Assembly (NCBI GenBank): GCA_963806535.1
Contig: CAWDYC010000005.1
Coordinates: 288,001 to 352,000, forward strand
DNA from: Candidatus Bathyarchaeota archaeon
GTDB taxonomy: Archaea > Thermoproteota > Bathyarchaeia > Bathyarchaeales > Bathycorpusculaceae
Length of the DNA: 64,000 nucleotides
Reading direction: 5' to 3'
Within the stretch, counting starts at the first letter, position 1. Every line of letters begins with the position of its first letter. The notes beneath the pieces were generated by a model that ran no database searches, was not told where the DNA came from, and saw nothing but the letters and a program-made list of their open reading frames with translations. Of the stretch, positions 30,410 to 47,001 are shown piece after piece. Position numbers and translations under genes: made by a program.

Positions 30410-31156
30410 CTAAGCCTGATTTTCAGTTATCCTCTTTTTTAGTTTAATTTCAAGAATTCCATTGTGGTAACTCGATTCAACTATCTCTTTCTCCACTATA
30501 GTTGGAAGATCTATTTTCTTGCAGTATGCTTTTGTTAGGGTGCTAAGATTTATTTTCAGACTCTTGCCTTCTGCCCTTAATTCTATTTCGTTCTCTTTAA
30601 CACATGGCAATTCAGTCGTTACGCGCAGGTAGTCCCCTTCTTCGAAGATGTCAACTATGGGGTCTCTTTCCTTTATTGTTCCTACTGACTGAGGCAAAAT
30701 TATATTTGCTCTCGGAGATTGTTTAAGTGGTTTTCTGATTTTTATTCCATTATTCGAAGGTTGTGTAGTGGAGCTTGCCTTTATCGGACGAGAACTTAAT
30801 CGGAAATCCACTGCTCCACCTTTTCCAAAGCTAATTGTTTTCTGCATTGTGTATTTCCCTTTGGATTTTTCTGCCAACGTGCCTAAATCGTTCACCAAAC
30901 TAAGTAAACCATTTCCCTTTTTGTCATTCGTCATAATCGATCCATTTAATATCTCAAAACCAAAACTGAGAATTCCGTCTAAAGCCTTGTTTTGATCTTT
31001 GATCTTAACATTTTTCTCTTTTTCGGGAGTTTTGGTTGTCTCCGCTTCGGATTTTTTTGGAGGCTGAATTTCTTTTTCGCTGAACGCAATATCCTTCTCT
31101 AGCTTTTTATTTTTCTTTTTTTCGCTCTTATTATTGATTTTTGGTTTTTTCATCAA
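30410..31156 (-). CDS. Hsp20/alpha-crystallin domain protein with long Lys-rich N-terminus (GvpH-like)
   Basis: PIVDIFEE, TELPCV, YHNGILEIKL. Confidence 0.8.
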   Translation of the reverse strand: MMKKPKINNKSEKKKNKKLEKDIAFSEKEIQPPKKSEAETTKTPEKEKNVKIKDQNKALDGILSFGFEILNGSIMTNDKKGNGLLSLVNDLGTLAEKSKGKYTMQKTISFGKGGAVDFRLSSRPIKASSTTQPSNNGIKIRKPLKQSPRANIILPQSVGTIKERDPIVDIFEEGDYLRVTTELPCVKENEIELRAEGKSLKINLSTLTKAYCKKIDLPTIVEKEIVESSYHNGILEIKLKKRITENQA

Positions 31157-32156
31157 AATCCTCTTTCTTCATTTGTTCTGGATAACTTATTTCTAGTAAT
31201 TCAAGATATGAGTCTGGATTTGCAAAATACTTAGCTTCAAGAGGTAGATTTCTTTGCACTGCCAAATGTATTCCGTTAATACCATATTTTTCTAAGATTT
31301 TTCTTGCCAGCGGATACCCCAAGTAATATGAAGCACCTTTGATTATCTGGGCGTGCTTCAGAACTTCTTCTAATATTTTTTGTGAGTTTGATTCTTCAAG
31401 CCCGGTCTGGAATGTTTTTTCAGATACTATATTTTTTCGTCTGGTCTCGATGCTCGATAATAGCCCAATGCATTTCAGATAGCCTGTCTGAAGTTCCTTA
31501 TCGGAAAGAGCTGCTTCTTCAGCGTAATTCATGTTTTTTAGAGTTTGAAGGGCTATAGCTTCGCAACTTCCTTCTTTAAAGACAGTTTTGAAAATAGCTT
31601 CAAAATACAGATCTAATATTTGCTGCAAACGTATAGGTTCAAAGTTTCCTTTGGCTTCGAAATACAGTCTCACAGCATTCTCTGTTGAGGTCTTTTGTGT
31701 CGTTGATTTGAGAGACGCAAGAAGTTTTTCTGCCAGTTCATGAGCGCATACTAAGACAACTTTTTCGGGAAAATTAATTGTCATTTCCTCGTTCAAATAC
31801 AATGTTTCGTTTTGAGGATTATAGAAAGCAAAATGGTTAGATAATCCTGCGGTTTGATCGCAAGTAAGAGCCTTTGAAATTTGTATCCATTGAATATTGT
31901 TTTTTGTTATGCCACTACTTCTAAGGTCGCTTCTTATGCGTCGCGTTAGGTGTTTTTTAAATTCGGATTGTTGGAGTATTAGAACATCTCTAAAAAAAGG
32001 AAAATTCACATTGAAGAATTTGATCATCTGAGAATGAATCTCTCTGAGCCGATGGCAAATTTCTTCTTGGTTTATTTTGGAATCGCTTTCTTGGAATGCT
32101 GACGCTTGATATTCTGGGGATATTGTTTTTTTCATCAAAGGTTTTCTCCAGAGCAT
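31131..32156 (-). CDS. Hypothetical zincin-like protein (HELAE...EGSCE)
   Basis: [42 protein letters not shown]. Confidence 0.5.
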
Positions 32157-34306
32157 TGGACCAATTTTTTGCGTTCTTTCATCTTATTGATGGCAGCTTG
32201 CATGTCTTCCATGGATATTTCAAGTTTGGTTTTTATTTCGGATGCCTTCACTTTTTCGCTTAGAAAACGGCGAATAGCGAACATCGTAGCTTCTCGACAT
32301 ACTCCGTCTATGTCCGCTCCGGTACAACCTTCGGTTTCTTCAACGAGTTTTTCAAATGAAACATTTTTTGCAAGTGGGTTCTTTGCGGTGTGTATTTTGA
32401 AAATTTCAAGCCTAGCCTCAGTTTCTGGAGTTGGAACTTGAAGAATAAGGTCGAATCGCCCAGTTCTCAGCAAAGCGGGATCAATTATGTCGATTCGATT
32501 TGTAGCTGCTAGAACCATGACACCGTGAAGTTCTTCTAAGCCGTCAATTTCAGTGAGGAATTGGCTAATTACTCTCTCCGACGTGTGAGCATCCGATATT
32601 CCGCTTCCACGTTTAGGAACCAATGCGTCTATCTCATCAAAGAAAACGATGCATGGAGCTGATTGTTTTGCTTTCCGAAAGATTTCTCTTACGCCTTTTT
32701 CGGATTCTCCCACAAATTTGTTCATAAGGGCTGGACCTTTTACATGGATAAAGTTAGCTTCGCTCTCTTTGGCAACTGCTTTCGCCAAAAGTGTCTTTCC
32801 CGTTCCGGGGGGGCCAAAAAGGATTATGCCCTTAGGAGGTTTGGCCCCGGCTTCTTTATAGATATCTGCGTATTTCAAAGGCCATTCTATAGCTTCCATA
32901 AGCTCTTGTTTCAATTCGTGAAGACCGCCGATATTTTCCCAAGAAACATTAGGTGTTTCAATTAGAACCTCTCTTAGAGCTGAGGGTTCAACAAAGCGCA
33001 ACGCGTCCTGAAAATCATCCATTCTTACTACTAGTTTGTTGAGCACTTCAGCCGCAATTAATTCGGCTTCAAAGTCAATCTCCGGCAAAATTCTTCGTAG
33101 TGCCTTCATGGCAGCTTCTTTGCAGAGCTCTGTTAAATCTGCGCCAGTGAAGCCATGAGTCAGATTCGACAGAATCATAAGGTCAACTTCTGGTGTAAGA
33201 GGCATACCTCGAGTGTGGATTTGGAGGATTTCAAAACGACCCTCTCTTGTTGGCATTCCTATCTCCACCTCTCGGTCAAATCTACCACCCCTTCGTAGGG
33301 CAGGATCGATTGCATTGGGTCTATTTGTTGCTCCGATGACCACCACTTGTCCGCGTGGTTCTAGCCCGTCCATCAAAGACAGCAGCTGAGATACTACCCT
33401 CTTTTCAACTTCTCCAGTAACTTCTTCTCTTTTCGGAGCTATTGCATCAATCTCATCAATGAATATGATGCAGGGTTTATTCTGTGCAGCTTGGGTGAAT
33501 ATCTCCCTTAAACGACCCTCTGATTCACCGTAGAATTTGCCATGAATTTCTCCGCCGCTAATGCTAATAAAAGTAGCAAAGGTTTCGTTCGCAACTGCCT
33601 TCGCAATAAGCGTTTTTCCAGTTCCAGGTGGACCATGTAGCAAAACTCCTTTGGGTGGTTCTATGCCAAGTCGGTCAAACACTTCTGGGTGACGAAGTGG
33701 CAACTCAATCATCTCTCTGGTCCTTTGAATTTGTTCGGACAGCCCGCCAACATCATCATAAGTGGAACCGAATCGTCTTCCCGTTTCGGCTGTTTTTTCT
33801 CGAATAACGATTTCCGTTGTCGAATGTAATATGGCAGCTGCGCCGTTAGGCTTAATGCGGACAACAATGAAGGAGACGCTTGAGCCTAAAAGTGTAAGCC
33901 GAATCTGGTCTCCTTCAACTAATGGTAAGCCATCCAAGAGGTTACGCACATGTTCTAATGGTTTTTCTCCCCCCCGCCAAGATTGGTCTTGCTCAAGTGG
34001 TGCAAGTGTAACTTTTTCTGCATCCACAACATCGATTTTCCTCACAGAAACGCAGTCGCCAATTCCAACAAAAGAATTGTTCCGTATTATTCCGTCTATT
34101 TGGATTAGATTCTTTCCCCGGTTTTCAGGGTAGGACGGCATGATTTTTGCAACAGTCCTTTTCTTGCCCATTATCTGAATGATGTCACCTGTCTGCGCCT
34201 GAATTTCTTTCATAATTTGAGGATCTATTCTTGCTATTCCTCGACCGAAGTCTCTAAGCGATGCTTCGTCAACGCGCAATGTTGAATTTGGGATGGTTTC
34301 TGACAT
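32135..34306 (-). CDS. cdc48: CDC48/VAT family AAA+ ATPase
   Basis: N-domain GRGIARID; two GPPGTGKT Walker [24 protein letters not shown]. Confidence 0.95.
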
Positions 34307-34410
34307 TAGTTTTTACCTTCGCAAATTAGACTACTACTTTACTTTTAGTTAATAACTAAATGTATATATACCTTTTGTTGTATTCTCATTGTCGAGGAAG
34401 AAGGCAAGAT

Positions 34411-46002: not shown

Positions 46003-46003
46003 T

Positions 46004-46606
46004 TTGCAACCTTCAAGGGATGGAGCTCTTGTCGATCTTATTGATAGAATTTTAGTCAAAGGCGTAATTCTTCATGCAGATGTAATAATTTCAGTTTCCG
46101 GTGTCCCACTAATTGGGATTAACCTGAAAGCTGCAATTGCTGGTTTGACTACTATGGTCGACTATGGGATGATGGGAACATGGGATGAACAAATCAGAAA
46201 AACCGTTCTAACTGAAAGCATCGAGGAAGCCCCATTAATTAAGGATGAGGAAATTATTCTAAAGACTTTTGGCTCATATTTTTGTCATAACAGATCTGTT
46301 TCTGGGGTATGGAGACCAGGCTTTCTTTATGTTACAAACAAAAGATTGTTCCTTTTCAAGAAGAACCCGAGTGAATTTTTGTTTGAGACCCCTATAGACA
46401 ACATAAAAGGATTGTCTGTCGATATGACCAGAAACTTGGAAGAAGAAAACAAGGCTCTTCAAGTTTTGGTTAAAAAAGATCTTACAACCACAGAGATAGT
46501 GTTAATTCGTACCGCAAAAAAAGATGTTCTAAAAAGTAAACTTGAAGAAATATTGGCAGAAACTAGGCAATCAGAAAAAGTTTTAGTTCCCGTTAATTTA
46601 ATCTAG
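46004..46606 (+). CDS. gvpM: GvpM/J-family protein with C-terminal PH/GRAM-like domain
   Basis: LVDLIDRILVKGVILHADVIISVSGVPLIGINLKAAIAG; WRPGFLYVTNKRLFLF. Confidence 0.78.
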   Translation: MQPSRDGALVDLIDRILVKGVILHADVIISVSGVPLIGINLKAAIAGLTTMVDYGMMGTWDEQIRKTVLTESIEEAPLIKDEEIILKTFGSYFCHNRSVSGVWRPGFLYVTNKRLFLFKKNPSEFLFETPIDNIKGLSVDMTRNLEEENKALQVLVKKDLTTTEIVLIRTAKKDVLKSKLEEILAETRQSEKVLVPVNLI

Positions 46607-46620
46607 TTTTTTTGGTTATC

Positions 46621-47001
46621 CTATTTGGATCCACATTTTTTGATAAAGTTGGACAATATATTAGTGGACAAGTTAAAAGCAACTATTTTTTTTCTGAATA
46701 TCTCTTTTCCTTTTAACGTTAATTGGTAAAAAGTTTTTCCATCGTCTGAAACTGATTTTATCAACTGCTCATTTTCTAAACTGTGAAGCAAAGGATATAG
46801 TGTAGCTGGACTCAACAGAATACCAAACTCTTTATGGATTATAGCTATGATTTTATAGCCATAGGTTGATCTTCCATTCAACATTGACAGAATTACTATG
46901 TCCAAGAAAGTTTTGACGTGTTTCTCGATTGTTTGATCTTCAGGCATTAAATTATCTAAAAATGAAAACTCGAATTCGTTAGCATTTCTTGTTTCCAACA
47001 T
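46621..47001 (-). CDS. PadR family regulator
   Basis: YGYKII, LLSPATLYPLLHSLE, YQLTLKG. Confidence 0.88.
   Translation of the reverse strand: MLETRNANEFEFSFLDNLMPEDQTIEKHVKTFLDIVILSMLNGRSTYGYKIIAIIHKEFGILLSPATLYPLLHSLENEQLIKSVSDDGKTFYQLTLKGKEIFRKKIVAFNLSTNILSNFIKKCGSK

Follow-up and report, generated by a model that had tools for sequence, protein, structure and literature searches.

Our analysis concerns a 64,000-nucleotide stretch of archaeal DNA (hereafter the window), positions 288,001-352,000 of a 402-kb contig (C5 in our numbering, accession CAWDYC010000005.1), and in it a cluster of gas vesicle (gvp) genes that lies among genes for an Hsp70, a J-domain protein, a Cdc48-type unfoldase and several Hsp20-type proteins (Table 1). 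The gvp genes occupy the plus strand from 35.9 to 46.6 kb, have intact open reading frames (ORFs) and were named by scans against Pfam and NCBIfam. These scans bear out the initial annotation, made from the DNA alone, which had listed two gvpA copies, gvpN, O, F and G, two gvpJ genes, gvpK and L, a GvpL/F-J-domain fusion, Hsp70 and gvpM as intact ORFs at these places, and had found candidates for the whole set of genes that haloarchaea require (A, O, F, G, J, K, L and M): each of these, and GvpN, has a Pfam or NCBIfam match above the Pfam cut-off. The five genes with a Gas_vesicle domain and every GvpL/F gene of the 2.95-Mb genome are confined to this single cluster, a concentration that is therefore far beyond chance, and none of 14 control genomes contains gvp genes.

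The gene behind gvpL encodes a fusion protein. Its residues 3-234 match the GvpF structures 4QSG (Microcystis) and 6L5D (Anabaena) of the PDB, with expectation values (E) of ~1e-12, but these structures lack the J domain that follows in the fusion, where residues 245-299 match known J domains. The His-Pro-Asp (HPD) motif by which J domains are recognized (H275, P276, D277) is the same in all of 15 fusions from archaea and bacteria. Behind the J domain, at residues ~302-309, a Tyr-Cys-x5-Cys motif is invariant in 15 aligned archaeal sequences and recognizable in most bacterial fusions. The ORF of the adjoining Hsp70 gene opens at 43984, with ATG 44074 or 44077 as the likely start; the interdomain linker is conserved. 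At 47% identity to the housekeeping DnaK encoded on contig C12, the protein is, judged by its sequence, a member of the Hsp70 family and a divergent paralogue of DnaK.

The Cdc48 gene, divergent from the gvp genes and upstream of them, encodes an N domain and two AAA modules with Walker A and B motifs in both rings. It shares this N-D1-D2 architecture with Thermoplasma VAT, its best match in the PDB (5g4f, E 4e-227), and is the third paralogue of the genome, the other two lying on contig C3. With these two, and with a housekeeping dnaK-dnaJ pair on contig C12, the genome has counterparts outside the cluster, and the cluster copies are therefore extra paralogues. A C-terminal proteasome-docking motif (HbYX) was unrecognizable in every Cdc48 copy, gvp-linked or housekeeping. 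The initial annotation had described a divergent Cdc48-zincin-Hsp20 operon with an additional Hsp20 gene; the genes are present, on the minus strand, whereas the zincin label is unproven (see below). The three Hsp20-type ORFs, including the one at the gvpH position, match only the C-terminal half of NF041800 and fall below its cut-off. The Hsp20-type protein next to gvpA is rich in Cys in its N-terminal part, where it bears a CxxC pair, an uncommon trait among small heat-shock proteins.

Table 1. Features of the gvp locus, with positions counted from the first letter of the window
Feature	Position	Strand	Basis
Genomic island, ~25 kb	22561-47608		SPFH/Band_7 gene to tRNA-Arg
Three sensor/regulator genes	24146-28237	-	Pfam
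PAS protein	24146-24886	-	
Response regulator with PAS domains	24864-26183	-	
Multi-PAS protein	26540-28237	-	
PadR-type regulator, left edge	29926-30315	+	PF03551 30.2 bits
Hsp20-type, long basic N-terminal part and C-terminal alpha-crystallin domain	30410-31156	-	PF00011 26.6 bits (cut-off 20.8); NF041800 partial 81 bits
341-residue protein, co-transcribed with cdc48	31131-32156	-	No family
Cdc48/VAT-type double-ring AAA+ unfoldase	32135-34306	-	TIGR01243 979.6 bits (cut-off 802.65)
ArsR-type winged helix-turn-helix regulator, divergent from cdc48	34360-34800	+	PF01022 59.5 bits
Second Hsp20-type, next to gvpA	35099-35671	-	NF041800 partial 82 bits; Pfam HSP20 17.8 bits, below cut-off
gvpA copy 1	35948-36175	+	PF00741 52.2 bits (cut-off 25)
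gvpA copy 2	36255-36482	+	PF00741 52 bits; identical to copy 1
GvpC-like 126-residue protein	36512-36892	+	Position after gvpA; two 33-residue repeats
gvpN (AAA+)	37376-38437	+	TIGR02640 343 bits (cut-off 267)
gvpO	38460-38750	+	PF05800 62.6 bits
In-cluster regulator, 273 residues	38776-39597	+	Weak MEDS and PadR matches
gvpF	39609-40268	+	PF06386 145 bits
gvpG	40273-40563	+	PF05120 31.6 bits
gvpJ-type 1	40718-41041	+	PF00741 29.4 bits
gvpJ-type 2	40999 or 41047-41430	+	PF00741 59.9 bits
GvpH-position protein, 206 residues	41349-41969	+	C-terminal Hsp20-type domain; NF041800 partial 54 bits
gvpK	41954-42271	+	PF05121 71.7 bits
gvpL	42268-43074	+	PF06386 189 bits
GvpL/F-J-domain fusion	43077-44057	+	PF06386 175 bits; PF00226 48.2 bits (cut-off 27.8)
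Hsp70	44074-46002	+	PF00012 583 bits
gvpM	46004-46606	+	NF046091 partial 91.5 bits; PF00741 48 bits
PadR-type regulator, right edge	46621-47001	-	PF03551 43.9 bits
tRNA-Arg(TCG), right border	47609-47685	-	ARAGORN; Rfam 61.7 bits

The shell and accessory proteins have features of their own. GvpA matches two shell proteins in the PDB, and only these, 7r1c and 8gbs (E ~3e-23), neither of which has the archaeal-type C-terminus. The two gvpA copies lie inside a perfect 300-nucleotide tandem repeat that includes flanking bases (35933-36232 and 36240-36539), and the related loci have a single gvpA; the duplication is either a very recent event or an effect of the assembly. The next gene had been annotated as gvpC-like: it does lie directly behind gvpA and carries two 33-residue repeats (period 99 nucleotides, 17 of 33 residues identical between them), but it has no GvpC family match in Pfam or NCBIfam at E<=0.01. 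Nothing notable was seen among the small ORFs of the 483 bp that separate it from gvpN. Both GvpJ-type proteins end in a zinc-ribbon-like CxxC...CPWC tail, and the second is the best-conserved accessory protein, with 65-71% identity to bacterial copies over ~100-110 residues that include the tail region. The true start of the GvpH-position ORF may lie further downstream. GvpM has a C-terminal extension of ~130 residues with a weak match to a bacterial PH domain (bPH_3, E 0.0036, below cut-off), and is merely 70-99 residues long in the family that we label f24 and in most bacterial loci.

The assembly that contains the window (genome G000) has 12 contigs and 2.95 Mb, with a completeness of 91.75% and a contamination of 3.41%; three DNA sequencing runs contain only 0.07 of the sampled words. 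The 16S gene of the genome is archaeal, in line with the host claimed initially. Its probable placement in Bathyarchaeia, also claimed, has support that is indirect but consistent and comes from named relatives: the homologues of the fusion, GvpN and the 341-residue protein whose source is named all come from Bathyarchaeia or Bathyarchaeota, including isolate BA2, and one of these NCBI proteins, labelled 'Candidatus Bathyarchaeia archaeon', has exactly the sequence of the fusion in G048, which belongs to the same GTDB family as the window's genome.

Related clusters in archaea and bacteria

We compared eight related archaeal loci with the window by blastp of all their ORFs against the window proteins. 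A scan of contigs with J-domain patterns had returned mostly ordinary DnaJ genes, and only one of the 80 loci kept (L006) was a full-length relative. The counts given here and below describe samples of related genomes and are not independent trials. The fusion is followed directly by Hsp70 in all eight loci (in L006 the latter is split in two ORFs), and GvpM lies behind Hsp70 in seven of them. The 273-residue regulator between gvpO and gvpF, which the initial annotation had overlooked, is found in all seven loci that cover that part, and an Hsp20-type GvpH lies between gvpJ and gvpK in five of seven. Two loci end too early for Cdc48 to be scored; among the five with enough flank, Cdc48 adjoins the cluster in four (L006, L115, L116 and L120, not L119). 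A second Hsp20 gene beside gvpA recurs in L006, L115 and L116, and homologues of the GvpC-like protein lie behind gvpA in L006 and L115. One genome, G032, has at its locus (L121, G032:C4) a truncated fusion, Hsp70 and GvpM only, with no other gvp homologue in the 7.5 kb upstream; this remnant and the split Hsp70 of L006 may reflect decay or sequencing errors.

The fusion is also found in bacteria. In a protein atlas, 13 of the 30 nearest clusters combine PF06386 with PF00226 and are labelled bacterial. Among 1.84 billion representatives, searched exhaustively, 155 matched the fusion at E<=1e-30; among the best 150 of these, 137 extend to query residue 291 or further and thus span the HPD motif. 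We also sampled 401 genomes of the bacterial phylum to which a record titled 'uncultured Thermodesulfobacteriota bacterium' belongs: among the matches listed, 31 genomes have a GvpF/L-type protein, and in 12 the match reaches into the J domain. At the seven bacterial loci studied (L140-L146), Cdc48 and the fusion lie inside the gvp cluster in every case, together with Hsp20-type genes, and an Hsp70 stands behind gvpM in three of the five loci that extend past the cluster end. The bacterial gvp-linked Cdc48 proteins are 56-61% identical to the window copy and the fusions 25-35%. In the three bacterial genomes checked, the gvp-linked Cdc48 is the only one; among the 14 control genomes, the Cdc48 model scores above its cut-off only in the four archaea. 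The co-conservation of chaperone and gvp genes that the initial annotation had suggested checking is thus found in other Bathyarchaeia and in bacteria.

The bacterial clusters share with the window the Hsp20 genes, Cdc48, the GvpL-J fusion with its HPD motif and an Hsp70 near gvpM. They differ in that Cdc48 lies within the operon rather than divergent and upstream, in the C-terminal region of GvpA, and in their shorter Hsp70s (487-610 residues). No homologue of the 273-residue regulator or of the 341-residue protein was seen in the seven loci. In a small tree of Cdc48 (13 rows), two archaeal and five bacterial gvp-linked copies are separated from six housekeeping archaeal copies with a support of 96 in the Shimodaira-Hasegawa-like approximate likelihood-ratio test (SH-aLRT), and the window copy groups with the bacterial gvp-linked ones, not with the two housekeeping copies of its own genome. 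In the tree of Hsp70 (18 rows), the eight archaeal gvp-linked copies form one clade (100). From their sequences, Cdc48 and the fusion look like one lineage that crosses the domains, and Hsp70 looks recruited or replaced separately in each.

A genomic island beside a tRNA-Arg gene

The gvp genes and chaperone genes belong to a stretch of ~25 kb between an SPFH/Band_7 gene and a transfer RNA (tRNA) gene, which also holds PAS and response-regulator genes, a TMEM175-type channel and a metallo-beta-lactamase-type (MBL) hydrolase. The left flank (10-22.5 kb of the window) has 74-83% nucleotide identity to G003, the closest genome of the same genus. At the G003 site, 385 bp separate the Band_7 homologue from a tRNA-Arg gene that is 100% identical over 79 nucleotides to that of the window, and the ~25 kb are therefore absent at this site. 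Colinearity with G003 picks up again at contig position 353,685, past the window end. In three other genomes of the genus the distance from Band_7 to the tRNA is 2.3, 4.5 and 16.4 kb, so that the site is a variable hot spot. The guanine-plus-cytosine (GC) fraction is 0.345-0.39 within the island and 0.41-0.44 in its flanks, and an Rfam scan over 22-49 kb found the tRNA only. None of the eight related loci has a tRNA gene adjoining the cluster; L121 contains one unrelated tRNA-Thr.

The distribution of the cluster among relatives is patchy. A match to GvpL/F was found in none of 24 genomes of the same genus in one draw, in one of 40 in a second draw, and in seven of 401 genomes of the class, G000 included, all seven with the full-length fusion. 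A sample of the whole phylum gave matches in eight of 401 genomes; the five outside the class have a plain GvpF/L protein without a J domain, and GvpN is not found in any of the five at E<=1e-10, which makes them unusable as an outgroup. The one carrier of the same genus, G217, has its cluster at another place. Between G217 and G000 the gvp-linked Hsp70 and Cdc48 are 66% and 76% identical, where the housekeeping copies have 87% and 92%, values that fit either separate acquisitions or a faster evolution of the island genes.

Given the empty site in G003 and this patchy distribution, the cluster is a laterally inserted genomic island. Lateral acquisition had been proposed initially because GvpA resembled the type of Methanosarcina and haloarchaea; the proposal stands, on the insertion in a tRNA-Arg hot spot, the dip in GC and the patchy spread, and not on that resemblance.

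A predicted assembly pathway and its alternatives

Our results suggest, with a probability of about 70%, that the ~25-kb island by the tRNA-Arg gene is a functional-looking gvp island with a dedicated proteostasis module. Gene content, motifs, gene order and island status are read directly from the DNA. The cluster copies of the chaperones are extra, they are linked to gvp genes and the J domain is fused to a GvpF/L fold; a client-specific J protein is therefore the most economical reading. The binding and enzymatic steps, and the formation of vesicles itself, may be pictured as follows. The GvpL/F part of the fusion would bind the very hydrophobic subunits of the GvpA, GvpJ and GvpM type, and its J domain, with HPD intact, would activate the ATPase of the Hsp70 encoded directly downstream, such that subunits would stay soluble and be passed to the growing vesicle. 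The Hsp20-type proteins, the one at the gvpH position included, would act as ATP-independent holdases. The Cdc48/VAT-type unfoldase may dismantle mis-assembled or collapsed shell material, in quality control or recycling. Expression would be governed by the PadR, ArsR, KaiC-like/PadR and PAS/response-regulator genes. A predicted complex between the GvpL part and GvpA scored 0.45 (best control 0.00, contact agreement at least 88%, partner predicted local distance difference test (pLDDT) at least 59). Among solved complexes, 58 of 80 reached this mark, against two mismatches out of 110, but at 0.60 or below only 7 of the 80 did so, and both mismatches; the model lends weak support to binding between these two.

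Several observations weigh against this reading. The ORFs scanned include no member of an integrase family, and no tRNA-derived att-like direct repeat was found at the island. The GvpC-like and GvpH-like proteins owe their names to position, repeats and a domain, not to family membership. The cluster Hsp70 falls just below the NCBIfam equivalog cut-off for DnaK (NF001413, 646.2 against 648) and well below that of TIGR02350 (644 against 822.55). The f24 cluster in G193 has no Cdc48 nearby, which implies that Cdc48 is not obligatory, and two of the five bacterial loci that continue past the cluster end have no Hsp70 within that stretch. The trees are small, unrooted and the product of a quick search. 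In the Hsp70 tree, three bacterial gvp-linked copies fall with bacterial DnaK (SH-aLRT 90), apart from the archaeal gvp copies; the cluster Hsp70s of the two domains are not sisters, each standing with the DnaK of its own domain, as the domain-specific residues ahead of the interdomain linker also indicate. It follows that recruitment or replacement of Hsp70 took place on more than one occasion.

The alternative that fares best is that the island is recent cargo, silent or decaying, and that the archaeon forms no gas vesicles. The sparse occurrence of the cluster (one of 40 other genomes of the genus, seven of 401 in the class counting G000) would fit such cargo, as would the remnant in G032 with its truncated fusion, Hsp70 and GvpM, and the split Hsp70 of L006. 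Yet all ORFs of the cluster are intact and catalytic motifs are kept, and many other assemblies have intact homologues with 55-93% identity to the cluster proteins, as is expected under purifying selection. We thus regard silent cargo as improbable, if worth keeping in mind.

It is less probable still that the chaperones are ordinary stress-response genes that happen to stand beside gvp genes and serve the whole proteome, with no special role in vesicles. Hsp20, Hsp70 and Cdc48 are indeed general chaperone families, and the lack of Cdc48 in the G193 cluster and of Hsp70 at two of the five bacterial loci that continue past the cluster end speaks for such a view. Against it stand the 15 of 15 clusters in which the J domain and GvpL/F form one protein, the Hsp70 gene behind the fusion in all eight archaeal loci, the housekeeping dnaK-dnaJ pair and two other cdc48 genes that the genome has besides, and the three bacterial genomes in which the sole Cdc48 is that of the gvp cluster. 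That the cluster came from another organism by faulty assembly or binning, as the GC below that of the flanks and a right border formed by a conserved tRNA gene able to join unrelated contigs might suggest, is very hard to reconcile with the position of the window inside a 402-kb contig, the left flank and the resumed colinearity shared with G003, the closest named homologues of the fusion, GvpN and the 341-residue protein, all from Bathyarchaeia, and a 93%-identical GvpN on an independent contig of 405,031 bp.

If the dedicated proteostasis module is accepted, a broader proposal can be made, to which we give slightly less than even chances. Gas vesicle assembly in many uncultured archaea and bacteria would rely on a dedicated, mobile chaperone machine in which a GvpL-J protein serves a private Hsp70, holdases of the small heat-shock protein (sHsp) type buffer the subunits and a private Cdc48 recycles failed or collapsed shells; cdc48, otherwise a distinguishing gene of archaea, would have moved from there to bacteria within the gvp cluster, with Hsp70 exchanged for a copy of the recipient domain. 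An archaeal-type Cdc48 would then have become fixed in bacteria by way of an organelle gene cluster.

The p-vac and c-vac clusters of Halobacterium consist of gvpACNO and gvpDEFGHIJKLM. The window resembles the haloarchaeal clusters in its GvpA, N, O, F, G, J, K, L and M, in the repeat protein behind gvpA and in having a protein at the GvpH position. In contrast, it has no family match to GvpD, GvpE or GvpI, having instead the KaiC-like/PadR regulator in the operon; it adds the GvpL-J fusion, Hsp70, Cdc48 and two more Hsp20-type genes, and both its GvpJ types bear the zinc-ribbon tails. HscA and HscB, a dedicated pair of Hsp70 and J protein for the assembly of iron-sulphur (Fe-S) clusters, follow a common logic, in that a specialized J protein supplies one Hsp70 with a single class of client. 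There is no orthology between the two pairs, the part that would bind the client is a GvpL/F domain in the window, and the cluster Hsp70 scores lower against HscA than against DnaK (491 and 646 bits).

Parts of this picture have precedents. A passage in one study reports that haloarchaeal GvpH stops GvpM from aggregating (PMC6107691), a statement in another has Hsp20 genes as frequent in gvp clusters (PMC2963123), and their presence there is also mentioned in a section of a third (PMC7325909). A gvp cluster with its own Hsp70, J protein and Cdc48 was not found described in published full text, with subscription journals and supplements outside the scope of that search, and the portions of full text that it covered gave no relevant account linking gas vesicles with Bathyarchaeia or Bathyarchaeota.

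How the extremely hydrophobic GvpA stays in solution and enters a growing vesicle is a question still to be settled, and one that holds back gas vesicles as genetically encoded reporters for ultrasound and imaging: making them in foreign hosts brings on proteotoxic stress, as noted in an excerpt of PMC12848028. A cluster with its own Hsp70 and J protein, Cdc48 and sHsp set would provide a testable handle on this question and a list of parts for engineering. A further prediction from our finding is the presence of buoyancy organelles in Bathyarchaeia, a lineage that is abundant yet uncultured.

Regulators, unassigned proteins and neighbouring genes

The initial annotation had placed PadR and ArsR regulators at the edges of the cluster. 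PadR-type genes do stand at both edges, whereas the ArsR-type gene sits between cdc48 and the second hsp20. The pair of ArsR and Cdc48 recurs in L006, L115, L116 and L120, and the right-edge PadR gene is retained at the same end in L115, L116 and L117. The 273-residue regulator has an AlphaFold2 model (pLDDT 71) with an alpha/beta domain and a PadR winged helix. Foldseek related it to KaiC, FlaH and RecA-type folds with query-normalized template modelling scores (TMq) of ~0.40 over 160-180 columns and to PadR proteins with target-normalized scores (TMt) of 0.7-0.78; its sequence shows no Walker A motif. Together with the weak MEDS and PadR matches of the family scan, these folds suggest that a degenerate domain of KaiC/RecA-like (MEDS-like) type is combined with a PadR winged helix-turn-helix.

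The 341-residue protein had been called a zincin, and this call is unproven: its motif is HExxE (H132-E133-x-x-E136), not HExxH, it has no Pfam or NCBIfam match, and Foldseek returned no match at E<=0.001 for an AlphaFold2 model of low confidence (pLDDT 66.7). The weak top matches (E 0.1-0.9) include several zinc peptidases, and the zincin assignment is thus a lead only. The HExxE motif and three Cys residues are invariant in 23 of 23 aligned homologues. The family has 91 homologues, all unnamed or 'hypothetical', one of them from Bathyarchaeota BA2.

Right of the tRNA-Arg gene, a second extra stretch of ~18 kb, from 47686 to contig position 353,685, is likewise absent from the G003 site; an ATP-binding cassette (ABC) transporter, a PadR gene and an Fe-S protein are among its contents. 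Just inside the right border, ~165 nucleotides at 47304-47468 have 73-84% identity to several places in genomes of the genus, with no match to Rfam or tRNA models, and may be a small repeated element. Left of the left-edge PadR gene, a 148-residue ORF (29479-29925) has a weak TFIIB-repeat match (E 0.0013, below cut-off) and could be a truncated factor related to transcription factor B (TFB). Homologues of the PAS and receiver genes further left are found beside related archaeal and bacterial gvp loci too.

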